Origin: Minisyncoccota bacterium
GTDB taxonomy: Bacteria; Patescibacteriota; Minisyncoccia; Phycocordibacterales; CAIZLB01
Direction: 5' to 3'
Length of the DNA stretch: 64,000 bases
Assembly (NCBI GenBank): GCA_021734945.1
Contig: JAIPIA010000001.1
Coordinates: 90,243 to 154,242 of the forward strand
Under the pieces are notes generated by a model. The model saw only the letters and a list, made by a program, of their open reading frames with translations. It had not been told where the DNA came from and searched no databases. Below, in pieces: positions 29,591 through 54,378 of this stretch; position 1 is the stretch's first letter; the number at the start of each line of letters is the position of its first letter. A program made the position numbers and the translations under genes.

Positions 29591-29662
29591 TCCGTGGTAG
29601 CTCAGCGGTAGAGCAATCGACTGTTAATCGATTGGTCGTAGGTTCGATCCCTACCCACGGAG
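29591..29662 (+). tRNA. tRNA-Asn (anticodon GTT)
   Basis: manual fold: acceptor TCCGTGG/CCACGGA, D-stem GCTC/GAGC, anticodon stem ATCGA/TCGAT with loop CTGTTAA, T-stem GTAGG/CCTAC with loop TTCGATC, discriminator G; CCA not encoded. Confidence 0.85.
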
Positions 29663-31327
29663 CAAGTTAGGACAGACCGACGCAAAAACGTCGGTTTTTC
29701 CTTTGTCTACATCATAATTTCTAGGTTCGAACTGTGGGTTTTTGAGTTTTGCTTCTTTGAGGCCTTGAATGAGTATATCCATCCATTTTGTGTTGATAAT
29801 ACTCACTTTTTCTTCATCCCATATTAGGTTCGAACCAAAACGTGAAAGAACCTCTCTTTTGGAGTTTATATTGTCAGATTGCATAATATCCACAAACTCT
29901 TTTGTGAGGTCAGCAATGTTGATTGCTGTGTCAAACCAGCTAGCATCAACTTTCCTTCTCGAACTTGATAAGATAGTTTTGTTTAATTCCTCAAGTGACA
30001 CTTTTCCATCAGCTGGAGATAGTGCTCCATCGGCCATCATTTCGATAATCTTCTTTTTTCGTTTTTCAGCTGTCTCAACTTCGTCTTTTGCATGAGTTGT
30101 CATTGCTTGCTGTAGCTCTATATCTTTATCCTTTAATTCGTGTAGATACTTTTTACTCCACTCGACAAGACTTGGGGATAGTTGTACGTTTTCTTTTGCA
30201 TAATCAACTATGTGTCCCGTTAGTTTATTCTCACTGATGTATTTAGTCTTTAGGTAGCTTTTTCTTCTTGCAACATTGTAGTAATAAACGTATTCAAGAT
30301 ATGTAGGCTTATCTATCTCCATGATCAATTTTCCACAATCAGGACAATTTGTCTTATTTGAATATGCAAACTTTTTCTTACAATCACAAATAACCTGGAA
30401 CTTAATGTCTGGTCCTATAAAATCACCGTTAGGGGCCTTAATAAAACCGGCAAAAGTGGTTACATGTGTCTTTGTCTTTGGGAGGTTTCTGTCCGAAAGC
30501 ATTCTTAAGATCTTGTTGTGCTGTGCTTCTGTTATCACTCTCGGTAAGCTTGCGTTTAGCTCATAACGCTGCCCATTCTGATAAAAGAAACCAGCGTATA
30601 TAGGGTCTTTTAGCATCGTATGAACTCTTGAGATGGCCATAAGAGCTCCACCAATTCTTTTATGTTTTGGAGTGGTTAGTTTTAATTCTTCACGTACGTA
30701 TCGTGCCAATCTATTTGCAGACCAATTACCAGTAAGGAACATGTGAAAAATCCTTTCAACTAGCGGGTATTTGTCTTTATCGACTAGCCACTTTCTATTT
30801 CCTTTCTCTTCGGTCTTATCATTGATAAAACCGATAGCAGCGACTCCATGAGGGTAACCCTTTAATGCTTTAGTCTTTTGTCCATTTTTTACAAAGGCAC
30901 TTTTATCGTCACTATCTCTTTTTGAAAAAAGGAACTCGAGTCCTAAAGTCATTTTGTCGATAGATGTATTGTAGTAAGTTCTTGTAGGTGTTTTAACACA
31001 AAGCAGTTTACCTCTATCCATTGCATCTATAACTCTTGCTCCATCAATCGCATTACGTGCGAGACGGTTCGGATGTATAGCTAAAATTGCATTGATCTCG
31101 CCTTTGTTTATTTTTGAAATAAGGCCGTCGAAAATCTGTCGACCCACCTTAAAAGCACTTTTCTCTTCCTTCAAGTAAAGACAAACATTCAGGTCCATTC
31201 TCACTGAGAAATCAGCAAGCTCACGTTCTTGAGTCTCGATTGACTGCACCTGCTTATCTTCGGTATCACTTGATTTTCTACAATATGATCCAAAGCGAAG
31301 TTCTTTTTCATTGATATTGTTGTTCAT
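29651..31327 (-). CDS. large serine recombinase (resolvase/invertase catalytic domain, recombinase domain and zinc-ribbon)
   Basis: 558 aa; N-terminal YCRKSSDTEDKQVQSIETQ (catalytic Ser region), recombinase zinc beta-ribbon CDCKKK...CPDCGK; last 12 nt of CDS overlap tRNA-Asn 3' end. Confidence 0.85.
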   Translation of the reverse strand: MNNNINEKELRFGSYCRKSSDTEDKQVQSIETQERELADFSVRMDLNVCLYLKEEKSAFKVGRQIFDGLISKINKGEINAILAIHPNRLARNAIDGARVIDAMDRGKLLCVKTPTRTYYNTSIDKMTLGLEFLFSKRDSDDKSAFVKNGQKTKALKGYPHGVAAIGFINDKTEEKGNRKWLVDKDKYPLVERIFHMFLTGNWSANRLARYVREELKLTTPKHKRIGGALMAISRVHTMLKDPIYAGFFYQNGQRYELNASLPRVITEAQHNKILRMLSDRNLPKTKTHVTTFAGFIKAPNGDFIGPDIKFQVICDCKKKFAYSNKTNCPDCGKLIMEIDKPTYLEYVYYYNVARRKSYLKTKYISENKLTGHIVDYAKENVQLSPSLVEWSKKYLHELKDKDIELQQAMTTHAKDEVETAEKRKKKIIEMMADGALSPADGKVSLEELNKTILSSSRRKVDASWFDTAINIADLTKEFVDIMQSDNINSKREVLSRFGSNLIWDEEKVSIINTKWMDILIQGLKEAKLKNPQFEPRNYDVDKGKTDVFASVCPNLLRG

Positions 31328-32026
31328 TTTTTTGTTAATTTTAGCACGCGCCGGGATCTTTTACCTCTGATCGATAGTAAAAGTTATCCTTATATGACAA
31401 CACATCCGGGGCTTCATCACGATGTTTTCTCAAGACCCTTGATGAAGATCAGATTGATACGACTCACATCAGACGGCTGGGCAAGAGATCCCGGAGAGAA
31501 CTTGTTTTCCCAGCTTTCGCATGTGCACCTTATCAACCCTTATTTGTTTTGTAGAGCGAAGTTGTTTAACCAGATGCTCTAAATCAGCTGGTGTGGATGT
31601 GTATTTGTTCTACGCTTATGAGCTTCGGCAAGCAAGGTCAATAAGAACAAGCCAATCTGTTGTAGATCGTTTTGATCCAAGAGGTTTGACTTATCTTCGC
31701 CGATTTCTAGGCGGAGAGCCTCTTTTAAATCTTCGATTGCTTTAGTGCTCAAAGTTTTCATACTTTTGAGCCGGTTTCGTCCCAAGAACCGGCCATTCAC
31801 GGGCTAGGTTGAATGACTGGTTTTTAAGACCAAACACGTCTAGCCCATAGTATGAGTCTACGAAATAGCACTCAAAACTCCGAGATCAATATCCAAAATT
31901 ATCTTTATTTAACAACGTATTTTTTATGTGTATTGACACCACTTGCATAAAACAAGAAATACTATCTCTTTCTCTACCAATAAAAATAAGCTAGAATGTA
32001 ATTACAACTAAATAAGCCGACCTAAC

Positions 32027-32165
32027 CCATCGAGAGAAATCTCGGTGGTATGGTCAAAAGTCCAGTAACGATCAAAGAACCCATTATGTGGGGTTGTCGT
32101 TACTGGCCATGCAGGGAAACTTGCATGGAGGCCGCAAGGTCTCACTCACGTAGTGGGCTTTTTGG
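32027..32165. ncRNA. candidate structured RNA element (four consecutive hairpins, two GNRA tetraloops), function unknown
   Basis: CCATCGAGA-GAAA-TCTCGGTGG; CCAGTAACGA...(nested AACCC/GGGTT)...TCGTTACTGG 10-bp perfect stem; CCATGCA-gggaaact-TGCATGG; GAGGCC-GCAA-GGTCTC. Lies within the 720-bp non-coding region and directly upstream of a membrane-protein gene. Confidence 0.3.
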
Positions 32166-32172
32166 TTGCCAA

Positions 32173-32511
32173 ATTATGAAAAAGATAATAGGCATTTTGA
32201 AGAAAGATAAAATAGGGAGACTAGATTACATAATTGCTCTAGGCACATTTCTTGTGCTGGAAGTAGTCATTTTCAGCTTCATCTTCTTGCTTGTCGATCA
32301 CATCAGTAACGACACATGGTTATTTATTTTCGGTACTTTGCTTATTACATCTCTAGGTACTCTTGCTTGGATAAATTCAAAGAGGATGCGAGACGCTGGA
32401 AGGAATACTAAGGAGCTTTTTTACTACTTTGTCATCCCTTTATTCTTTGCTGCCCATAGTATTTTCCTTATCTTTTTAACCAGCAAAGATGCACATCTAC
32501 GACAAAAATAA
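32173..32511 (+). CDS. small 3-TM membrane protein (island-encoded)
   Basis: ORF track gives 32050..32511, but the N-terminal 41 aa overlap the structured non-coding element; ATG at 32173 (MKKIIGIL...) followed by hydrophobic helices is the likely start. Confidence 0.45.
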   Translation: MMKKIIGILKKDKIGRLDYIIALGTFLVLEVVIFSFIFLLVDHISNDTWLFIFGTLLITSLGTLAWINSKRMRDAGRNTKELFYYFVIPLFFAAHSIFLIFLTSKDAHLRQK

Positions 32512-33254: not shown

Positions 33255-36200
33255 CTATTTTATATTGAGACTTTCCCACGCAGAGATGATTTGTTGCATT
33301 CTGGCTCCTGCAAGTGGCATTGATGCAAAACGAATTCTGATCACGCTGCGAATAAGTTCAATTGCTGTTCGTGCATCTCTTTCAAAGGTCAAAGCATCAA
33401 GAACGGTCATAATCAGACCTTCACGCTCCTTATCGGTAACCGGCTGCTGCCATAGTAAAAACATGAAGTCAGCTAACACACCAACGACTGATCTAAGCTC
33501 CATTTTTACACCTTTAAGCGTGGCCAAGACTTCTTTGAATGGACTTTGGTTTTCCCATTGTGCTTGCCTTGCTGCCTCAATCAGAGTAGTGCTTTCAAGA
33601 GTAACGTGCTGATATCTGCGAAGAACCAGCTTGATGACTGCATCCCAGTATTCTGAACTCGAGATCTTCTTGTCGATAAGAAAGTGCATCAAAATTGCTT
33701 GCGTCCAAACGCCGTTCACTTTGAAGTCATCGTTCTTTGCATACATTCTAGTGGCCAAGTCTTCAGCGTACAACGAGCACTCGTTTTCTTTTGCGATAAG
33801 TATTGTTTCAATTGCATACTTTCCGAGCACTTTTTCCATCTCTTCAAACTGTTGAGTCTTCGGCAATGTTTTGCATGGTGTTAGAGTACAGTTTTCACGT
33901 ATCCATTTTTTCAGAGACTCAAGTGCTTCCACTTCGGTCGCAGCTTGTTCAGGAGTTTTTTCGTCTCGAATAAAGCTACCATCCATTTTTCCTAAAGTAG
34001 TAGATCCTTTTGAGCCCATCCCTTTTCTTTCTGAAATTGCCTCGTTCAGAGTATCTATGGTTGATTGTGTTACAAGAACTTTCTTGAATTTATCTTTGAA
34101 CATTTCAAGCAAGCCAAGTTGAGATAGAGTGAGTAGGGATGTAATGTCTATGGCTATAGTGTCGTTTGTTTTGATTGAGTCGAGGGCGACTTGACGCTCT
34201 TCAAGGGTGCCAACGCAAGACCTTATACCTACGCTTGCTGAAAGGCCATACCATACATCAACAATGTTCTTGTTAATTACACTTGCGAAAGCACCTACCG
34301 TGAGTTTCATGTCAATATAAAGTTTCTCTGCTTGAGAGACATATTCACTGTGATTTGAGACAACCTGCAAAACTTTATCGAGACTCTCTTTTGTCTTTTC
34401 CTCAGAGCTTACATCTACTGAAAAGCGTTCAAGAGACTTTTGTTCGGAAAATCGTTCCGGCATCAGTCGCATAGACTCATGAAGTGCATGCACGTATTTG
34501 TTTTTGATCTCAGTGATTTTAACCACAATTTTACTGATGGCCCCTTCAGACACAACAACATCATCATTAACCGATCTGCCCAAAAGCTTTTCACCAATTC
34601 CAGAAGAAACACCTATTTCATTCAAAGCCATGCTGAGATCTTTTCGGTCTTCAAGTAGGTAGCATGTGATCTGATCAGCGTCGTTTTTCGTGTATACAGC
34701 ACTAGATATGACTGCAGTTTTTGGGATCTCAAGTAGTTTCTCAAGTTTATGGTCTTGCGCCAAAAAGATAGTCATATACTTGGCATGTGCTTCGCCGTCA
34801 TCGAAGTACTTCCGTCTCAACTGATAGGCGGCTTCGAGTGATTTTTCTACCTTATTCCTTTCAGCGTATAGCTGGGCCAACTGGAACCCCGGGTTTATAG
34901 GGAGTTGGGTTATATCAATATCTTCATCGAGAAACTTATCAAGCTTTTCAAACTCATCAAGTCGAAACCAGTGTGTAGCTAGCCGAGTTTTTATTTCCAG
35001 GTCGTCTGGATGAGATAATAAGTATTTTTCTGCAGCAGCAGAAGCAGCAGACAGATCTCCGATGTTCTCGAGAATAGATAGCTCAATCTGCAACAGAAAC
35101 AAACCCTTGTTTTCGTCTGGTAGACGCTTAAACAAGCTTAGTGCTTTATCAACCTCGTTGGCTCTGTAGTACGAATAGAAAAGATTATCTAGGTGAGGTG
35201 ACGGAACTCTGGGGTCAATTATCTTTTCATACAAAGGCCATGACTGCGCGTATTTTTGCATGTTATACAAGTCGTCTGCCAAATTGATGACAATGTGAGC
35301 AGGGGTCATGTCAGTAATATATCCGTAGGCCTCATCAAGTAGATTGCCCGCCGCTTCCTTGTTACCAGCAAACCTTTCGGTACGGCTTGCGGCAATTAAA
35401 TTCTCGATATTCGTTGGATCAAACGATCTAAGTTTATCGACGATTTTTTTTGCTTTCTCATAATTTTTCTCCTTGATATAAACATGAACAAGCATGCGTT
35501 CTTCCTCGGATCGTAATTCAGGCGGGAGGTCGTCGCTGAACGATTTGATCAGTGTCTCCCGTGCCTCTACTAGGTTATTTTCATCAAAATAGATACCAGC
35601 AAGAACATATGCGGCTTCTGGAACCTCTTTTTTACCTACCACAGTCTTGAGTATCTCAATGGCCTGCTTTCTCTCTCCCTTTGAGTAGAGCATGAACGCC
35701 TGCTGTTTCAACATTGCCGCATCTTCAGGCTGGTAGCGCACCGCGCTGGCCATATCAGCATTAGCCTTATCCATTTCACCTAGTAGCTTATAAGCTGTTG
35801 CTCGATTGGCGTACCAAGAGGGACGATAGCTTATACTTTCAGAATTAGAAAGACTGTCTATGGCTTCCGAAAGTAATTGAACAGCTTTTTCTATTTTTTC
35901 CTTGTCTTCTGGGATAAGTTGCATATTGTTTGCGACTTCATGCTTCTGCATAAAAGTCTCAAGGATCGTGGATGCAAGATTTGCTTGAATGTCAGGGTTC
36001 TTCTTTCTGATTTTTATAGAGTCTTCCATTGCAATCTCAAGCCACTTTATAGATGATGCGAGATCACCGCGTTCACGTGCTGCATGCGCAATGGTAAACG
36101 CCACATCTTCTGACTTTCGAAACTCTGCTGGTATATCCTTCAGTATATCTTCAAGCGCTTGAGTCTTTGGGGAGCAGTTTATCAGAATGCCGATTGCTCG

Positions 36201-37532
36201 TGTGCTCGCTGGGTTCTTGTCCAAGACTTTTCTAATGTATGTCTTACACTCTTCTGTCTGATCGAGCATGAGATGACCCAAAGCTCTGTTACAAAGTGAT
36301 TTTTCATCTTCGGGATTGTATTGGTGAGCTTGTATAAAAAGTGACCCTGCCTCTTTTTCTCGATGTAGAGATGCTAATGCGGCGGCCTTGTTCGTTAGTA
36401 TTCGAAACTTAGAGATGTCGTTTGCACTGCTCCAGATCCGCTTCTCCAGACCCTCAAGAAAGTCCAGAGCTTCTTTCGGCTTCATATTGTTGATCAAATC
36501 TCTTCCGTGATCGATCTCAGCGGCATGTTCACTCGCGATTGCAGTAGTGTCAAAAACCATCTGAGCTATTTCCTTTTTTTCTGTTGTGTTAGCGGCAACA
36601 GACTCATTTATGAGAGCAAGACCGTCACCAACCTTTTTTTCAATGTTGCCGAGCTTTTCCGTAAAAGCATCAGAAAGAGAAGGATCGACGTTCGAAGAGG
36701 CTAATGCCGGGTAGTATTTTGAGGCAACATTTCCAAAGTTCCCAAGTTTTTCGAGTATGTCATCCCAAGAGAAGACGTGAACGGAAAACATTCCCTTTGT
36801 TGCGTGCTCCATTGAGATCTTCAGTGCCGCTTGTTGTAGCGACGTGTCTCTTTTACCAGTGTATGCAATAACGAGTTCTGTAAGAGGAGGGTTGAATTTT
36901 TTTGCTTCATCGACAATATCTTGAATATCGCTCACTGATAAAGCGTCAGCAGTTTCATTGCTTGTCGCATCCTTCTTCTTGCACTGTATTGCTCCAAGTT
37001 TTTGTGTCTCTTTAACTTTACCTAAGATGTCTATTCCGTTCTGTCTCTGTCCTGAACGACCATATCTCACTAAGTTGTGATCGTTCCAAATCTCTTGCCA
37101 TAAATCAGCAGAAAGTCTTTCAAATTTCTCCCATTCTCTTGGAGGAGGGACTTGCCACTGGGCAATATCAACAGGACTCGAAGATGTAGACTTTGGCTCA
37201 TTCCCGATAGAGCTGTCTATAAGTTTTTGCAGGCTTAAAATGAAATCGTTCCAGGTCATTTCGCCTTTGTACCAAAGAATACAGATGTCGGTTCTGTGCC
37301 GGAGGACGCGCATGAAGGTTTGCCATGTGAAGCCTTTCGCCTTGAGCTGACTTTTCAGGTTATCCCAGAGGTATTTCGGCAGTTTGTTGCCTGTCCAGAC
37401 GATAGAAGCATCGTCGCTGCTTTCAGGGGAAGACTGCTTCATAGATTGCATCAACGCTTTTAGGTCCAAAGGTTCAGGTGGAGTATTTATTTTCATACCC
37501 CCAGTATATGGGGTATAAAAGTAAAATACCAT
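33255..37532 (-). CDS. 1425-aa multidomain protein: N-terminal Mrr-like PD-(D/E)xK restriction-endonuclease-fold domain, long TPR array, C-terminal PIN-like(?) domain
   Basis: aa about 134-262 match the Mrr_cat pattern (FE.L..LW...GRSGQ.QNGIDI...IQCK...ELVIAYTG, FSWDDIL); aa about 350-1000 tetratricopeptide-like helical repeats; C-terminal DTIAIDITSLL plus later acidic residues suggest PIN-like fold (weak); no Walker A found. Confidence 0.8.
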   Translation of the reverse strand: MVFYFYTPYTGGMKINTPPEPLDLKALMQSMKQSSPESSDDASIVWTGNKLPKYLWDNLKSQLKAKGFTWQTFMRVLRHRTDICILWYKGEMTWNDFILSLQKLIDSSIGNEPKSTSSSPVDIAQWQVPPPREWEKFERLSADLWQEIWNDHNLVRYGRSGQRQNGIDILGKVKETQKLGAIQCKKKDATSNETADALSVSDIQDIVDEAKKFNPPLTELVIAYTGKRDTSLQQAALKISMEHATKGMFSVHVFSWDDILEKLGNFGNVASKYYPALASSNVDPSLSDAFTEKLGNIEKKVGDGLALINESVAANTTEKKEIAQMVFDTTAIASEHAAEIDHGRDLINNMKPKEALDFLEGLEKRIWSSANDISKFRILTNKAAALASLHREKEAGSLFIQAHQYNPEDEKSLCNRALGHLMLDQTEECKTYIRKVLDKNPASTRAIGILINCSPKTQALEDILKDIPAEFRKSEDVAFTIAHAARERGDLASSIKWLEIAMEDSIKIRKKNPDIQANLASTILETFMQKHEVANNMQLIPEDKEKIEKAVQLLSEAIDSLSNSESISYRPSWYANRATAYKLLGEMDKANADMASAVRYQPEDAAMLKQQAFMLYSKGERKQAIEILKTVVGKKEVPEAAYVLAGIYFDENNLVEARETLIKSFSDDLPPELRSEEERMLVHVYIKEKNYEKAKKIVDKLRSFDPTNIENLIAASRTERFAGNKEAAGNLLDEAYGYITDMTPAHIVINLADDLYNMQKYAQSWPLYEKIIDPRVPSPHLDNLFYSYYRANEVDKALSLFKRLPDENKGLFLLQIELSILENIGDLSAASAAAEKYLLSHPDDLEIKTRLATHWFRLDEFEKLDKFLDEDIDITQLPINPGFQLAQLYAERNKVEKSLEAAYQLRRKYFDDGEAHAKYMTIFLAQDHKLEKLLEIPKTAVISSAVYTKNDADQITCYLLEDRKDLSMALNEIGVSSGIGEKLLGRSVNDDVVVSEGAISKIVVKITEIKNKYVHALHESMRLMPERFSEQKSLERFSVDVSSEEKTKESLDKVLQVVSNHSEYVSQAEKLYIDMKLTVGAFASVINKNIVDVWYGLSASVGIRSCVGTLEERQVALDSIKTNDTIAIDITSLLTLSQLGLLEMFKDKFKKVLVTQSTIDTLNEAISERKGMGSKGSTTLGKMDGSFIRDEKTPEQAATEVEALESLKKWIRENCTLTPCKTLPKTQQFEEMEKVLGKYAIETILIAKENECSLYAEDLATRMYAKNDDFKVNGVWTQAILMHFLIDKKISSSEYWDAVIKLVLRRYQHVTLESTTLIEAARQAQWENQSPFKEVLATLKGVKMELRSVVGVLADFMFLLWQQPVTDKEREGLIMTVLDALTFERDARTAIELIRSVIRIRFASMPLAGARMQQIISAWESLNIK

Positions 37533-49723: not shown

Positions 49724-50389
49724 TTAGTTAGTATGGAAAACTGCTGGCCATGTAACACTTACATTACCACTCTGATCAGTTGTATAGATCATGTAGAAGT
49801 AATTAGTGTTTGATGCAAGATTTGGGATAGCGATACTCTGTGAACTTCTGAAGTTTGTGTCAGTCATAATTGATGCACTGTTGATATCAACTGCATTTTC
49901 TCGTTCGAATGCTACAAGTGGACTTGTACTATAGTACACAACTCCTTTAGCTAATTCATCAGTTGTCCAAGCGATAGTTGGTACATTTCCGTTAATTGAA
50001 ACACCAACATTTGATATCTGCGCTGATCGTCCTCCTGTAACACTTGCACCCATGTTCATACCGAGAGCCATCTGGGCGTTAAGTACAGGGAGAGTTTGAG
50101 GTCCTACTCGGCCTACTGATGAAATACCGTTTCGCACCTGGAAGTTAGATACAGCTGACTTTGTGAGTGAGCCGAAGTATCCAGTTACAAGACCTTGTGG
50201 GTAAATAGTTGCATCAGATGCAAGGAAAGTCTGGAGTGATGAAACATCGTTTCCTCGTGATCCAACTTCAAGCTGTCGGTAGAGTGTATCTGCTGATGCT
50301 AGTGCTGGCACGACTGAAACTGCAAGTGTTGCAGCTAGGAGTCCTGTTGTAAATAATGCGTTTGTGATTTTTTTTGTTGTGATTTTCAT
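49724..50389 (-). CDS. secreted peptidoglycan-binding-domain protein
   Basis: 221 aa; signal peptide ...ALASA; PG_binding_1-like repeat (LQTFLASDATIYPQGLVTGYFGSLTKSAVSNFQ); beta-rich C-terminal domain. Confidence 0.65.
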   Translation of the reverse strand: MKITTKKITNALFTTGLLAATLAVSVVPALASADTLYRQLEVGSRGNDVSSLQTFLASDATIYPQGLVTGYFGSLTKSAVSNFQVRNGISSVGRVGPQTLPVLNAQMALGMNMGASVTGGRSAQISNVGVSINGNVPTIAWTTDELAKGVVYYSTSPLVAFERENAVDINSASIMTDTNFRSSQSIAIPNLASNTNYFYMIYTTDQSGNVSVTWPAVFHTN

Positions 50390-50623
50390 GTTTTTTAAAT
50401 GTAATTAGTATTTATTAGTATTAGGTTTAGAATATTTTAGTATTCTGATATCTCCTTTGGGTAATGCCATAAATATACGACTGATTATCTATCTAGTACC
50501 CTCTGTTCATAAGAGCCGACCAGTATTGAAAGTCATTACAGAGTTTATAATTTCCTTTTCTTGCTAGAGGTGAGTTCTGGAGGTGCTATTACATTATTTA
50601 GATAAAAATGTATACTTAGTCTC

Positions 50624-51244
50624 GTGAACCTTAGAAAGGCACAGAGTGTGGTAAAGCCACCAAAAGTGTCGGAATCGAAGTTACTCTCAAAGGCGCCTAA
50701 GAAGATGACTAGTGGGCAAAAGGTGGAAAGGCAAGACCAGCTTGCTTCAGCACATCTGAATTATCATAAAAGCTTAAATGCATATGCTTCTTATAAGTTG
50801 AGTGACAGTGTATTAAGTCAAGATTTGGTGCAAGATACATTTATAAAAACGTGGAACTATCTGATGAAGAAAGGGGAGATAAAAGGAATGAAATCTTTTT
50901 TGTACCATGTTCTTAATAATTTAATTGTCGATGAGTATAGAAAAAGAAAGAGAAAAACTGTATCATTAGACGTGTTGCTAGAAAATGGTTTTGCTCCAAA
51001 TACAGGGGAATCTGAATCAATAAAAAACCAAAATATATTTGACGGGAGTCTAGTTGTTCTTTTAATAAAAAAACTACCAATCTCGTATCAAGAGGTGATA
51101 AGAATGAGGTATGAACAAGATTTGTCATTAAAAGAGATGTCGGTCATTATGAAAGAAACAGAAAATACAGTATCTGTCCGACTTCATAGAGGTATACAAA
51201 AATTACGTCTTTTACATGAGTCACATGACGTGACCCATACGTAA
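50624..51244 (+). CDS. RNA polymerase sigma-70 factor, ECF subfamily
   Basis: 206 aa; region 2 (LVQDTFIKTWNYL...DEYRKRKR) and region 4 HTH (LPISYQEVIRMRYEQDLSLKEMSVIM); true start may be an internal Met. Confidence 0.7.
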   Translation: MNLRKAQSVVKPPKVSESKLLSKAPKKMTSGQKVERQDQLASAHLNYHKSLNAYASYKLSDSVLSQDLVQDTFIKTWNYLMKKGEIKGMKSFLYHVLNNLIVDEYRKRKRKTVSLDVLLENGFAPNTGESESIKNQNIFDGSLVVLLIKKLPISYQEVIRMRYEQDLSLKEMSVIMKETENTVSVRLHRGIQKLRLLHESHDVTHT

Positions 51245-51312
51245 ATACATAGAACCTTTCATCTAACCGATATAATTAGAGAATTTGTAAGAAATTACTC
51301 ATATAGACGGCT

Positions 51313-51693
51313 ATGACAGTTAGTATGAACTTATCCCAGAAAATCCTTATAATAGAAGACGAAAAGACACTTGCCAGAGCTCTAGAAATTAAACTTGTTA
51401 AAGCTGGATTTGACGTAAGGGTGGTATTTAATGGTGAAGACGGAATCACACTACTAGAAAAGGATACGTTTGATCTAATTCTCCTAGATTTGATAATGCC
51501 TAAAATGGATGGTTTTGGGGTACTGAATAGTCTTTTGGAAAAAAAAATTAAAATCCCTGTAATCGTTTTAAGTAACTTAAGTCATGAGAGTGATATGAAA
51601 AAAGCAAGAGAATTTGGAGCAAGAGAATTTTATATTAAATCAAATACTCCTCTAAATGTAATTATCGAAAAAGTGAAAAAAATACTTAAATAA
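51313..51693 (+). CDS. single-domain response regulator (CheY-like receiver)
   Basis: 126 aa; ILIIEDE...LILLDLIMPKMDG phospho-acceptor Asp, conserved Ser/Lys positions. Confidence 0.85.
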   Translation: MTVSMNLSQKILIIEDEKTLARALEIKLVKAGFDVRVVFNGEDGITLLEKDTFDLILLDLIMPKMDGFGVLNSLLEKKIKIPVIVLSNLSHESDMKKAREFGAREFYIKSNTPLNVIIEKVKKILK

Positions 51694-51722
51694 TCAAGAA
51701 TAATCAGATATTTTAAAATACT

Positions 51723-53165
51723 ATGACAATCCCAAATAATAAAATATATAAAGTAAACAGTGTACGTAAAAATAAGAATTTGAAAAAAGATATTTCTCCA
51801 TCTGTTGATATTGCTCACAAGCTCAAGGTGCGAGCTAAAGAGAAAGAAAACATTAGACGTAAACTCGCAGTTACCGCAAAGCAATTGGCCTTGGTAGCTA
51901 GAGAAAATGAGAATGCAAGACGTAAGCTAGTAATAACAGCTAAGAAACTCGCATTGAGTGCTAGTGAAAAAGAGACAGCAAGACGCAGTCTCGCAGTCAC
52001 TGCTCGCGAGCTTAAGCGCTTACATTGGACGCTTGAAAAGAAAGTTTTGAAACGAACGAAGGATCTTGACCAGGTTAGGTCTAAAAATGAAGCAATATTG
52101 GCAAGTATAGGTGATGGGCTTGTTGTTGTTGATAAAGAAGGGAAAATTACCTATATAAATAAATCATTTGAAGAAATGCTAGGTTGGAAGTCTCAAGAAA
52201 TTATAGGAAAATCTATGGTTGAGATAGTTCCACGTGAAGATGTAGATGGGGTGGAGGTGCAATTTAAAGAAAGAATTTTGACACAGGTCCTATCTGGCAA
52301 AAAGTTTGTTGCCAATCTCACTAACCCTTTCTACTATATTCGTAAAGATAAGAGTCGTTTTCCAGTGAGTAGTATTATTGCTCCAGTTGTTTTAGCCTCA
52401 AAAATTATTGGAGCAGTGGAGGTGTTTCGCGACATAACAAAGGAAAAAGAGGTTGATAAAGCTAAGACAGAGTTCGTATCACTTGCTTCTCATCAACTGC
52501 GTACACCACTTTCGACAGTGAGTTGGTATAGCGAAATGCTTTTGGCGGGAGATGTGGGAGACGTAACTCCAGAGCAAAAAAAATATATTGAAGAGATTTA
52601 TCGTGGAAATCAGCGAATGGTAAATTTAGTCAACACTCTTCTAGATGTTTCTCGTATTGAGCTAGGTACTTTTATAGTCGAATCCAAGCCAACAAACATT
52701 GTAAAGTTGGTGCAGGGAGTAATAGAAGAATACAGATTGCAAATTCGCGAAAAAAGAATACATTTTTCATTTTCATCAGAAAAAAGTATTCCTAATATAC
52801 AAGTCGACCCAAAGATTTTACGCATGGTTGTTCAAAATCTTTTATCAAACGCTATAAAATATACTCCAGAGGGAGGAAGGGTTTTTATTTCGCTTTTTGC
52901 TCAAAAAGGAAATGCCGTGCTTTTTAAAATAGTTGATACCGGCTATGGAATTCCAAAGAATCAGCAGGACAAGATTTTTACAAAACTGTTTAGAGCCGAT
53001 AACGTAGTTGGTAAAGATACAGAGGGTACTGGTCTAGGACTTTATATTGCAAAATCAATAGTAGAACAATCAGGAGGAAAAATCTGGTTTGAGTCAAGTG
53101 AAAATAAGGGTACTACATTCAATGTAACCCTTCCGTTGAAGAGGAAAAATCCAAAAAAAGCATAA
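51723..53165 (+). CDS. cytoplasmic sensor histidine kinase (coiled-coil repeats, PAS, HisKA, HATPase_c)
   Basis: 480 aa; no TM; PAS-like region (GKITYINKSFEEMLGW); H-box FVSLASHQLRTPLSTV; G-boxes DTGYGIP and GTGLGLYIAKSIVE. Confidence 0.85.
   Translation: MTIPNNKIYKVNSVRKNKNLKKDISPSVDIAHKLKVRAKEKENIRRKLAVTAKQLALVARENENARRKLVITAKKLALSASEKETARRSLAVTARELKRLHWTLEKKVLKRTKDLDQVRSKNEAILASIGDGLVVVDKEGKITYINKSFEEMLGWKSQEIIGKSMVEIVPREDVDGVEVQFKERILTQVLSGKKFVANLTNPFYYIRKDKSRFPVSSIIAPVVLASKIIGAVEVFRDITKEKEVDKAKTEFVSLASHQLRTPLSTVSWYSEMLLAGDVGDVTPEQKKYIEEIYRGNQRMVNLVNTLLDVSRIELGTFIVESKPTNIVKLVQGVIEEYRLQIREKRIHFSFSSEKSIPNIQVDPKILRMVVQNLLSNAIKYTPEGGRVFISLFAQKGNAVLFKIVDTGYGIPKNQQDKIFTKLFRADNVVGKDTEGTGLGLYIAKSIVEQSGGKIWFESSENKGTTFNVTLPLKRKNPKKA
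51837..52025 (+). repeat. three tandem 63-bp (21-aa) repeats inside the kinase N-terminal region
   Basis: KEKENIRRKLAVTAKQLALVA / RENENARRKLVITAKKLALSA / SEKETARRSLAVTARELKRLH; the same repeats produce the mirror ORF on the minus strand. Confidence 0.8.
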
Positions 53166-53278
53166 ATTAAAAATGAACGAATTGATTGTACTTTGATTAG
53201 TAGTTCTGACTATAACGTGACATACTTTGTCTTGAAAGACAAAAAACAGACTATGTAAGTTTTTATAACTTCAAATAT

Positions 53279-53785
53279 ATGACACAAATACGAAAAAACA
53301 AGACAAAAGATAAACCAATCGAGCGTAAAACTATTTTGGTTATAGAGGATGAAAGGTCTCTGCTTGAGATTGTCGACTCAAGGCTTAAGAATAAGGGTTT
53401 TGATGTAATGACTGCTCGTAGTGTTGATGAAGTATTTAATGCTGGAATAGAAGCAAAGGGTATGGGGATTATAGCTGTTAAAAGTATTCAACAGGCACTC
53501 GACTATCTCGAAGATTTAGAAAAAGTAGATGCTATTTGGTTGGATCATAACCTATTGGGTAAAGAGAACGGTTTTGATTTAATAAAGAAAATAAAGGCGA
53601 ATGGGGGAAGATGGAAAAACGTACCTATATTTGTAATTTCAAATTCTGAAAAATCTGAGACAATAAACACGTATATTGAGTTGGGTATAAATAAATACTA
53701 TATTAAGAGTAATCATAAACTTGATGATATAATAGGGGATATTCATAAACATTTGGATGCTAAAGTTAATAAAAGAAAATCATGA
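53279..53785 (+). CDS. atypical receiver-domain protein
   Basis: 168 aa; ILVIEDERSLL...IWLDHNL receiver-like with insertions; 3' end overlaps next gene by 4 nt. Confidence 0.55.
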   Translation: MTQIRKNKTKDKPIERKTILVIEDERSLLEIVDSRLKNKGFDVMTARSVDEVFNAGIEAKGMGIIAVKSIQQALDYLEDLEKVDAIWLDHNLLGKENGFDLIKKIKANGGRWKNVPIFVISNSEKSETINTYIELGINKYYIKSNHKLDDIIGDIHKHLDAKVNKRKS

Positions 53786-54378
53786 CAATAAATCATAAAT
53801 TTATAAATAAAAAATTTGCAATATATGGACTATTACTTATTGTGTTTGTCGGATTAGTCTATCTTTTTTATCCTAGACCTATTGTCGACAGTCGGCATGA
53901 TGCTGATGTGTTTGGTGGCCCAACTACTGCTTATACGTTTGATCCAAAAAATGCCACTTATACTATAGAGGGACAGTCAGTGACTTTAGTAAATGGCGTA
54001 GCAGAAACTCCAAGTGCTCCAGGTTCAGCTTCAATGACGACAACTCGATATTTTGGTAACGAAGCATACGGTGATATTGATGGTGATAATGACAATGACG
54101 TCGCGTATCTTATTACACAAGACGGAGGTGGAAGTGGACTATTTTATTATGCAGTAGTTGCATTGCGTACTTCTACGGGCTATAAGGTTACAAATACATT
54201 TTTGGTAGGCGACAGGATCGCATCTCAGTCGACAGAAATTCATGAAGACTCACAAGAATTGCATGTAAATTTTGCTGAAAGAAAGAATGGTGAACCTATG
54301 AGTGCTGAACCATCTGTCGGCGCTGTACTACTTCTCAAAGTAACTCCAGAGGGAGTTCTTGAAGGTTTGATGAAATAA
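53782..54378 (+). CDS. hypothetical membrane-anchored extracytoplasmic protein
   Basis: 198 aa; N-terminal TM; Gly/Asp-rich beta-like ectodomain. Confidence 0.45.
   Translation: MTINHKFINKKFAIYGLLLIVFVGLVYLFYPRPIVDSRHDADVFGGPTTAYTFDPKNATYTIEGQSVTLVNGVAETPSAPGSASMTTTRYFGNEAYGDIDGDNDNDVAYLITQDGGGSGLFYYAVVALRTSTGYKVTNTFLVGDRIASQSTEIHEDSQELHVNFAERKNGEPMSAEPSVGAVLLLKVTPEGVLEGLMK

Follow-up and report, generated by a model that had tools for sequence, protein, structure and literature searches.

In the 64,000-nucleotide stretch of Minisyncoccota DNA analysed here (contig JAIPIA010000001.1; hereafter the window), a soluble sensor histidine kinase carries, ahead of an S-helix-like segment and a PAS domain, a threefold in-frame repeat with a period of 63 nucleotides (nt), or 21 amino acids (aa), over kinase residues 38-100. 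We consider it fairly probable that this array is an ancient, selected, strongly basic and register-locked coiled-coil rod, which would serve the kinase as an N-terminal dimerisation/input module. The window instance is ordinary for its family, and it is the family-level pattern which is the interesting part.

The repeat was far beyond chance. A BLOSUM62 self-comparison scored 115 at an offset of 21 residues and 59 at an offset of 42, while shuffling the N-terminal 120 aa 500 times gave at most 55, and shuffling the whole protein as often at most 51. An ungapped repeat finder located a 17-nt core at spacings of 63 and 63. An earlier note on this DNA had placed three perfect 21-aa tandem repeats at 51837-52025. 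The array itself was confirmed as real, in frame and non-random, but its register had to be moved by one codon, to 51834-52022, and the units are not perfect: 10-14 of 21 residues are identical in pairwise comparison, DNA identity is 54-65%, and 28 of 63 columns are invariant among the three units. Third codon positions are identical at 6-8 of 21, roughly as expected from composition alone, and the longest exact word recurring within the array is 9 nt. Tandem Repeats Finder, applied to 50000-54000 with a minimum score of 30, did not report the array because its DNA is too diverged. No second array was found elsewhere in the 64-kb window, the G+C content of which is 36.9%. Rfam, searched over the whole window, gave no match at the kinase locus, and a promoter scan was of no help in DNA so rich in AT (22 sites, 16 expected). 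A terminator-like minus-strand match within unit 3 (51994-51978) and an 84-aa minus-strand open reading frame (ORF; 51630-51884) were both taken as chance.

The age of the triplication can be judged from the closest relative, P0013, which shares 84% identity with the window kinase, comes from an independent Logan assembly and lies in the same order of genes (sigma factor, REC, kinase, REC, REC, where REC is a single-domain receiver). The two proteins align with zero gaps across the array, the three units match position for position, and unit-specific residues are common to both (ARENE in unit 2, A[S/H]EKE in unit 3), so that the triplication is older than the split from P0013. Synonymous sites between the two genes are saturated (proportion of synonymous differences, pS, 0.65-1.0), amino-acid identity of the arrays is 76%, and the proportion of nonsynonymous differences, pN, is 0.19 in the array and 0.03-0.10 in the PAS, DHp and catalytic domains. 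Judged from these substitutions, the triplication appears ancient and under purifying selection, somewhat looser than that on the catalytic core. The duplication had been described as recent-looking, a view which does not hold, since the units are saturated at synonymous sites and the triplication was already present before the orthologues separated.

A recent, slippage-prone repeat (contingency locus) or an assembly artefact in the window genome has, in our opinion, next to no chance of being the explanation, and for the window this reading is already refuted. It draws on relatives, some of which carry 42-nt subunits that are 98-100% identical (L004, L007, L016, L024, L029, L040, L041 and L067), and on the separation of one pair, P0076/P0108, by a 105-nt deletion between perfect 42-nt repeats. 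In the window, no near-identical DNA units able to slip or recombine were found. Units as diverged as these, with no repeated word above 9 nt, are well under any assembler k-mer or efficient recombination substrate, which makes collapse or expansion by the assembler not credible; the presence of the same three units in the independently assembled P0013 therefore excludes the assembly artefact that the earlier note had named as its refuting outcome.

Each 21-aa unit is composed of three heptads, AKEKExV, RRKLxVT and AxxLAxT, designated below as the E, R and A heptads. Their grammar was established on approximately 1550 heptads, tokenised from 134 non-redundant arrays of relatives and registered to the downstream anchor. 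The E heptad reads A-[K/E/R]-E-K-E-x-[V/T/A/I] (A1 100%, E3 98%, K4 96%, E5 100%), the R heptad R-R-K-L-[V/A]-[V/I]-T (R1 99%, R2 88%, K3 94%, L4 100%, T7 94%) and the A heptad A-x-x-L-A-x-T (A1 98%, L4 99%). Their order is also constrained: in 477 of 488 cases the heptad after E is R, whereas R leads to A (415) or E (68), and A to E (287) or another A (142). The window kinase runs from a helix N-cap (SPSVD) through A, E-R-A, E-R-A and E-R to a junction heptad (ARELKRL), then through HWTLEKK-VLKRTKD-LDQVRSK-NEAILAS into the PAS domain. In the E, R and A heptads respectively, position a is occupied by Ala, Arg and Ala, and position d by Lys, Leu and Leu.

Several observations suggest that these heptads form a coiled coil, in agreement with the earlier note, which had called the unit heptad-like, amphipathic and probably a coiled coil. 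The Fourier power of hydropathy over residues 29-125 peaked at exactly 3.5 residues and was low at 3.6; the power at 3.5 was 58.2, for a shuffle mean of 11.8, and was reached by 4 of 1000 shuffles. Gly and Pro are absent from residues 28-125 and make up 0.34% of the residues over 153 arrays. AlphaFold, supplied with an alignment of 60 homologues, returned a single helix over residues 26-119 with a predicted local distance difference test (pLDDT) of 70-84, and the model predicts one uninterrupted alpha-helix of about 95 residues, with the repeat units as its core. The 3.5-residue periodicity at a and d, the breaker-free helix and, among relatives, indels in sevens all conform to what is expected of a coiled coil.

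The heptads continue in phase into the segment that follows. The motif LExxVxxRT is invariant among 60 homologues (L104, E105, V108, R111 and T112 in the window kinase). The S-helix is a parallel coiled coil of about 40 residues, or about five heptads, located between signalling modules, with polar residues in its core and a hallmark E-R-T at heptad positions c, d and e (PMC1592074). By inspection, this triplet is K-R-T in the window and mostly E-R-T, overall E/R/K/Q-R-T, in relatives. R111 occupies position d, as in the published S-helix definition, which sets heptad position 1 as a and position 4 as d and thus places the repeats in phase with the S-helix-like segment. The 21-aa repeats are not themselves copies of the S-helix, because the ERT signature is missing from them.

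Other identities for the array were considered and rejected. A single alpha-helix (SAH / ER-K) domain does not fit, as about 41% of residues are charged (40 of 97, residues 29-125) and in the family heptads a broad apolar face is formed by L (position d), V/I (position f) and A (position a), all invariant or nearly so. The E-R heptads were also compared by eye with three motifs, namely the S-helix ERT heptad, the methylation consensus of methyl-accepting chemotaxis proteins and the cyclic di-GMP motif of RsiG, none of which fits in register. No Pfam or NCBIfam model spans residues 30-120, and the repeat profile, when run against PDB sequences, had a single match, to Cas11c (E=3), regarded as chance.

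Array length and heptad phase among relatives

The family was found to be narrow. A search with the N-terminal 126 residues retrieved fragments sharing the S-helix and PAS domain, with two to about six units and indels of 7, 14 and 21 residues. A scan of one genome per GTDB species revealed at least 127 relatives, and 80 of the loci were fetched. All but one belong to metagenome-assembled genomes (MAGs) of Patescibacteria or to unclassified 'bacterium' records, the groups named being Paceibacterota, Kaiser-, Taylor-, Nomura-, Staskawicz-, Wolfe- and Vogelbacteria, Peribacteria/Peregrinibacteria, Gracilibacteria and MAGs labelled Saccharibacteria; the one outlier, a 2.6-kb contig, had been binned as Gammaproteobacteria. 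A 42-residue ERAERA profile, run exhaustively with HMMER against 1.84 billion cluster representatives, matched 83 clusters at E<=1e-3, 59 of them at E<=1e-10. The source organisms with a name are, with a single exception, Patescibacteria. The longer, apparently full-length clusters are nearly all array-PAS-HisKA-HATPase or array-HisKA-HATPase proteins, a few having several PAS domains, and many of the remainder are short fragments with no detectable domain. One protein from this search, P0186 (2727 aa, NACHT), was taken as a low-complexity false relative. The longest array seen was that of P0131 (1060 aa), with 17 profile matches and heptads over residues 22-645 (about 620 residues, roughly 70-90 heptads) around an internal PAS domain.

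The earlier note had suggested that the repeat number could vary between strains and tune signalling; at the level of the family, this comparison bears out a variable copy number. Taken as the distance between the first E heptad and the leucine that opens LExxVxxRT, array length ranges from 24 to 270 aa, or 3.4 to nearly 40 heptads. Length is nevertheless quantised. Among the 65 measurable proteins of the GTDB loci, 56 have a length equal to 3 modulo 7 (24-234 aa). Four are at 1 modulo 7, each with an extra PAS domain inserted in the array, and five at 4 modulo 7, each with one surplus residue, which lies in an R heptad in four cases (RRKKL, RRHKL, RRRKL) and in a degenerate unit read KQKKISI in the fifth. 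Proteins without an inserted PAS are therefore in phase in 56 of 61 cases. A second set of 117 measurable close homologues, 56-84% identical to the window protein, gave the same picture: 97 are at 3 modulo 7 (24, 31, 38, 45, 52, 59, 66, ... 241 aa), 16 at 1 modulo 7, all with an inserted PAS, three at 4 modulo 7, and one at 2 modulo 7, with an inserted PAS plus one surplus residue. Apart from the 16 inserted-PAS proteins, 97 of 101 are in phase. The in-phase proteins of both sets fall into about 26 length classes. The window length of 66 aa is one of the two commonest among the close homologues (16 occurrences, and 18 for 45 aa), and one clade of Paceibacterota has a modal length of exactly 220 aa over several species.

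Such a near-strict constraint modulo 7 implies that the phase is protected and argues that length changes are selected against disturbing the output phase. The off-phase arrays with no inserted PAS (L025, L033, L051, L057, L061, P0120, P0125 and P0129) are all long (at least 144 aa), and in each of them a single residue has been added, mostly within an R heptad. The engineered kinase YF1 responds in the opposite sense when its linker has 7n+1 rather than 7n residues (PMC6798134). By analogy, these one-residue 'skips' could be natural polarity variants of the kinase.

The near-identical 42-nt E-R subunits found within single genes of the eight loci listed above indicate that duplication is still under way in some lineages. 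Pairs of proteins with very similar cores differ in array length: 87 and 108 aa in P0015 and P0024 (cores 96% identical), 66 and 45 aa in P0057 and P0071 (94%), 101 and 66 aa in P0052 and P0060 (100%), and 59 and 24 aa in P0076 and P0108, the C-terminal 383 residues of which are 100% identical. In this last pair the deletion is clean and in frame (L081:4064-4210 compared with L082), and the short form lies on a 1.6-kb Logan contig; the difference may be either a real unequal recombination or a k-mer short-cut of the 42-nt repeat in that contig. An extra PAS of about 140 aa, bracketed by heptads of its own, was also observed to be present or absent in mid-array between cores that are 93-94% identical (P0025 compared with P0038-P0051; loci L005, L008, L011 and L013). 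The array seems to be a place where domains can be inserted.

Possible roles of the array

From a mechanistic point of view, two subunits would zip their helices into a parallel, in-register coiled-coil rod, about 10 nm long for the 66-aa array and about 14 nm for the 94-residue helix, at a rise of about 0.15 nm per residue. This rod would hold the S-helix and PAS domains as a dimer and act as the N-terminal input/dimerisation module, the helix passing in unbroken heptad phase into the S-helix (KRT/ERT) and then to the PAS, DHp and catalytic domains. The kinase would then signal to the adjacent single-domain receivers and, probably, to a sigma factor of the extracytoplasmic function (ECF) type. 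Across the Patescibacteria, recombination between units would lengthen and shorten the rod, nearly always in whole heptads, and the phase reaching the S-helix would thereby be kept.

We infer both the dimeric, parallel packing and an input role, rather than that of a passive stalk, from the architecture of the family. Kinases of this class are dimers, in which the pair of DHp helices 1 extends upward as a parallel coiled coil (PMC6798134). In relatives lacking the PAS domain, the array is joined straight to DHp helix 1, 13-25 residues ahead of the phospho-accepting His, and this direct fusion, together with the dimer architecture of the class, points to a parallel orientation. The irregular succession of ER, ERA and ERAA modules packs like with like only in a parallel, in-register homo-oligomer. 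An input/dimerisation role is suggested because nothing else lies upstream of the S-helix, or of the DHp domain in members with no PAS. No fixed register emerged between the final heptad of the array and the phospho-His in PAS-less relatives, as the two cases worked through differ in phase (His at +4 and +2 modulo 7).

The rod might instead be a passive structural stalk, which would only stabilise or space the kinase dimer and carry no signal, its length being near-neutral as long as phase is kept; we see this as a genuine possibility, albeit a doubtful one. No domain upstream of the rod is able to generate a signal, array length varies widely among relatives whose cores are 70-96% identical, and the downstream PAS would be a sufficient sensor in most members. 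Such a stalk is, by contrast, difficult to reconcile with PAS-less members, where the rod alone precedes the DHp domain, and with the position between rod and PAS of the S-helix, which the literature describes as a switch between input and output modules. A mere stalk would not need the 88-98% conservation observed at positions b and c, and one clade keeps its modal 220 aa over several species.

Several features weigh against a dimeric input rod. The core is odd for a two-stranded coil, with two Leu, two Ala, a Lys at d and an Arg at a per 21 residues. Apolar residues predominate at positions e, f and g (V/A, V/I, T), and b and c are nearly invariant; such a core is no less compatible with a higher-order bundle, or with a surface that binds a partner, than with a simple dimer. 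Net charge reaches +11 over 63 aa in the window, with a mean of +3.8 per 21 aa. A charge of this size is expected to make an in-register homodimer less stable, except in the presence of counter-ions or of a polyanionic partner. The 220-aa array of P0127 was rendered by AlphaFold as helices with two breaks at low confidence (pLDDT 40-66), so that long arrays may form a fold-back bundle. In addition, no description of the repeat in kinases of Patescibacteria, or candidate phyla radiation, was found in the literature, the coverage of which was incomplete and leaves absence unproven.

Some of these features would be expected of a multivalent docking surface, in which each E-R(-A) unit binds a receiver, the sigma factor, a polyanion (nucleic acid, polyphosphate) or an anionic membrane, and copy number sets valency. 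Residues that face outward are near-invariant (E3 98%, R9 88%, K10 94%), the charge is high, the apolar e, f and g positions exceed what a dimer buries, and the REC and sigma neighbours are conserved. Yet no known binding motif was matched for the array in Pfam, NCBIfam or PDB sequence searches, and a pure docking array has no need of a modulo-7 rule relative to the S-helix. We accordingly hold this role to be unlikely, while granting it some weight.

A tethering role is very improbable. In this reading, the R-A heptads (LVVTA..LAVTA, bearing a narrow stripe of K/R) would form an amphipathic in-plane anchor that lies on an anionic membrane and tethers the otherwise soluble kinase. The apolar face does extend over about 5 of 7 positions in the R and A heptads, with Lys/Arg flanks, and the region is strongly basic. 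However, a fully charged belt (KEKE..RRK) breaks this face every 14-28 residues, the 19-residue hydropathy maximum is located in the PAS core rather than in the array, and the conserved phase with the S-helix indicates helix-helix packing.

A more speculative proposal, to which we give only a slim chance, is that the array is an undescribed type of input. It would be a basic, marginal zipper (Lys at d, Arg and Ala at a), the zipped or unzipped state of which would itself be the signal. This state might be set by ionic strength, by temperature, or by a polyanion or partner bound to the EKE..RRK positions; copy number would set the threshold or valency, the 7n+1 variants would be polarity-inverted, and the zipper would be the sole sensor in PAS-less members. 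Overall, the coiled-coil dimerisation/input rod remains the interpretation we favour.

Kinase layout and neighbouring genes

The kinase, whose features are listed below, is an exact match to the NCBI entry 'MAG: PAS domain S-box protein [Candidatus Pacebacteria bacterium]' (P0011), on a 383-kb contig.

Features of the kinase gene and its neighbours (positions in the window)
Feature	Position	Strand	Basis
ECF-type sigma-70 family factor	50624..51244	+	Pfam Sigma70_r2/r4; NCBIfam TIGR02937, 73.9 bits (cut-off 42.9)
Single-domain receiver (REC), ends 29 nt upstream of the kinase	51313..51693	+	Pfam Response_reg, 2.4e-21
Soluble sensor histidine kinase, 480 aa	51723..53165	+	ORF; PAS-HisKA-HATPase_c in Pfam
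Basic leader and helix N-cap, residues 1-30 (...KKDISPSVDI)	51723..51812	+	AlphaFold; relatives
Lead A-type heptad AHKLKVR, residues 31-37, in array phase	51813..51833	+	Family consensus
Repeat unit 1, AKEKENI-RRKLAVT-AKQLALV (heptads E, R, A) = AKEKENIRRKLAVTAKQLALV	51834..51896	+	
Repeat unit 2, ARENENA-RRKLVIT-AKKLALS (E, R, A) = ARENENARRKLVITAKKLALS	51897..51959	+	
Repeat unit 3, ASEKETA-RRSLAVT-ARELKRL (E, R, conserved junction heptad AxELKxL) = ASEKETARRSLAVTARELKRL	51960..52022	+	
S-helix-like segment HWTLEKKVLKRTKDLDQVRSKN, residues 101-122	52023..52088	+	KRT; invariant residues in homologues
PAS domain, residues 123-240	52089..52442	+	Pfam PAS_9 6.7e-16, PAS 7.9e-16
HisKA/DHp, residues 247-314	52461..52664	+	Pfam HisKA 2.7e-18
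HATPase_c catalytic domain, residues 362-473	52806..53141	+	Pfam 1.2e-29
Second single-domain receiver (REC / cREC_REC), downstream of the kinase	53279..53785	+	Pfam

All three kinase domains, PAS, HisKA and HATPase_c, exceed their Pfam gathering scores; with 66.2 bits for HisKA (cut-off 26.9) and 103.4 bits for HATPase_c (cut-off 26.4), the protein qualifies as a HisKA-type sensor kinase, with the phospho-acceptor His257 in the H-box SHQLRTP. Its core is the orthologue of no named NCBIfam kinase: the best model, PnpS, reached 250 bits for a cut-off of 400, WalK 244 for 725 and ArcB 171 for 838. The only 19-residue hydropathy window above 1.6 (residues 213-235) sits inside the PAS core, and the kinase is therefore devoid of a membrane segment, as the earlier note had stated. 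AlphaFold gave a pLDDT of 35-45 over residues 164-250 (52212-52472, the second half of the PAS), despite the strong Pfam PAS matches and the 60-sequence alignment.

Ahead of the rod, residues 1-25 are disordered in AlphaFold and the helix begins at residue 26. Relatives have just 8-25 residues ahead of their first heptads, and their consensus immediately before the first AKEKE heptad is xxKLKxLA. There is no sensor domain upstream of the rod in this leader. An in-frame TTG at codon 20 (51780-51782) would start the kinase as MKKDISPSVDIAHKLKV..., a better fit than the annotated ATG at 51723 to the short leader typical of the family (MxKKxxISxSxxIxxKLKxLA). The closest orthologue, P0013, likewise has a long leader, and a clear ribosome-binding site precedes neither start.

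The cluster of ECF-type sigma factor, REC, kinase and REC described in the earlier note was recovered in the same order, with all genes on the plus strand. In related loci, the kinase is nearly always followed directly by one or two REC ORFs. About half of these loci have an ECF-type sigma gene no more than about 3 kb from the kinase, and a PG_binding_1 protein is frequently encoded nearby. In the region 53279-54378 (+), an ORF of 198 aa begins at 53782 and overlaps the stop of the second REC (53785) by 4 nt, which suggests translational coupling. Its product, which belongs to no Pfam or NCBIfam family, has a single hydrophobic segment, at the N-terminus; in the orthologous locus L083, the RECs are followed by a similar protein of about 200 aa that also lacks annotation.

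Elsewhere in the window, a full-length Rfam LOOT RNA motif (RF03000) was found at 32019-32143 (+), with 89.1 bits (gathering score 46.4; E=1.4e-15), and overlaps the start of a 153-aa ORF (32050-32511). A single tRNA gene at 29591-29662 (+; Rfam, 72.4 bits) overlaps by its 3' end, over about 12 nt, the 3' end of a 558-aa minus-strand ORF (29651-31327). The largest ORF in the window, of 1425 aa, is located at 33255-37532 (-).

Comparison with known systems

Helical register is central to the passage of signals through sensor kinases and has mostly been probed with engineered linker libraries. The present family constitutes a natural series, in which one and the same core is attached to rods of 3.4 to nearly 40 heptads that obey the phase rule almost without fail, a few +1 cases excepted. 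Signalling in the ultra-small Patescibacteria is essentially unstudied, and this compact conserved module of an ECF-type sigma factor, two single-domain receivers and one soluble kinase may be among the few regulatory circuits of their reduced genomes. If the rod is truly a sensor, it represents a new type of input; if it is only a stalk, it provides a clean case of heptad-quantised evolution. For the window itself, the practical import is limited: its repeat is genuine, of old origin and under selection, and poses no assembly problem.

The array resembles the S-helix in that the segment which follows the repeats (LEKKVLKRTKDL, residues 104-115) bears the R-T of ERT at d and e, with the repeats in phase. 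It differs from it by its own invariant AxEKExxRRKLxVT, its free N-terminus and its highly variable number of units, whereas the S-helix has about five heptads. Coiled-coil linkers between sensors and effectors, such as those of YF1 and other LOV kinases, also have discrete heptad-periodic lengths, among which 7n+1 is a recognised special class (PMC6798134). Array lengths are likewise quantised in sevens, and the natural variants that depart from the family phase do so only as 7n+1. Unlike these linkers, which join a sensor to the DHp domain over a few heptads, the rod is free at its N-terminus and is built of near-identical modules, up to nearly 40 heptads.

In ArcB, a cytosolic leucine zipper (residues 70-121) is located just before the PAS domain and is needed for proper signalling (PMC3364231). 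The window kinase also has a coiled coil directly N-terminal to its PAS, and the NCBIfam ArcB model aligns from residue 34, across the array. It is not an ArcB orthologue, because its 171 bits are far under the cut-off of 838, and the ArcB zipper, in contrast, follows transmembrane helices, is non-repetitive and has a fixed length. Chemoreceptor cytoplasmic domains are classed by their number of heptads, 24H-64H (cited in PMC6943060 and others). They similarly are signalling coiled coils which gain or lose whole heptads and fall into discrete length classes. However, they form antiparallel hairpins with symmetric indels and contain an MCPsignal domain, features absent from the window kinase, which has no corresponding Pfam match.

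Whole-heptad units also recombine, altering the length of the rod, in streptococcal M proteins and in Lpp+21 variants. The deletion that distinguishes L081 from L082, exactly between perfect 42-nt repeats, would be of the same kind. M proteins and Lpp are surface or periplasmic structural proteins, unlike cytoplasmic kinases. Discrete-heptad coiled coils are thus already well known in sensor kinases, as the S-helix, the linkers between sensor and DHp domain and the ArcB zipper illustrate. What is distinctive here is the combination of a free N-terminal rod, a conserved three-heptad grammar, an unusual basicity, an approximately ten-fold range of lengths and a narrow distribution.

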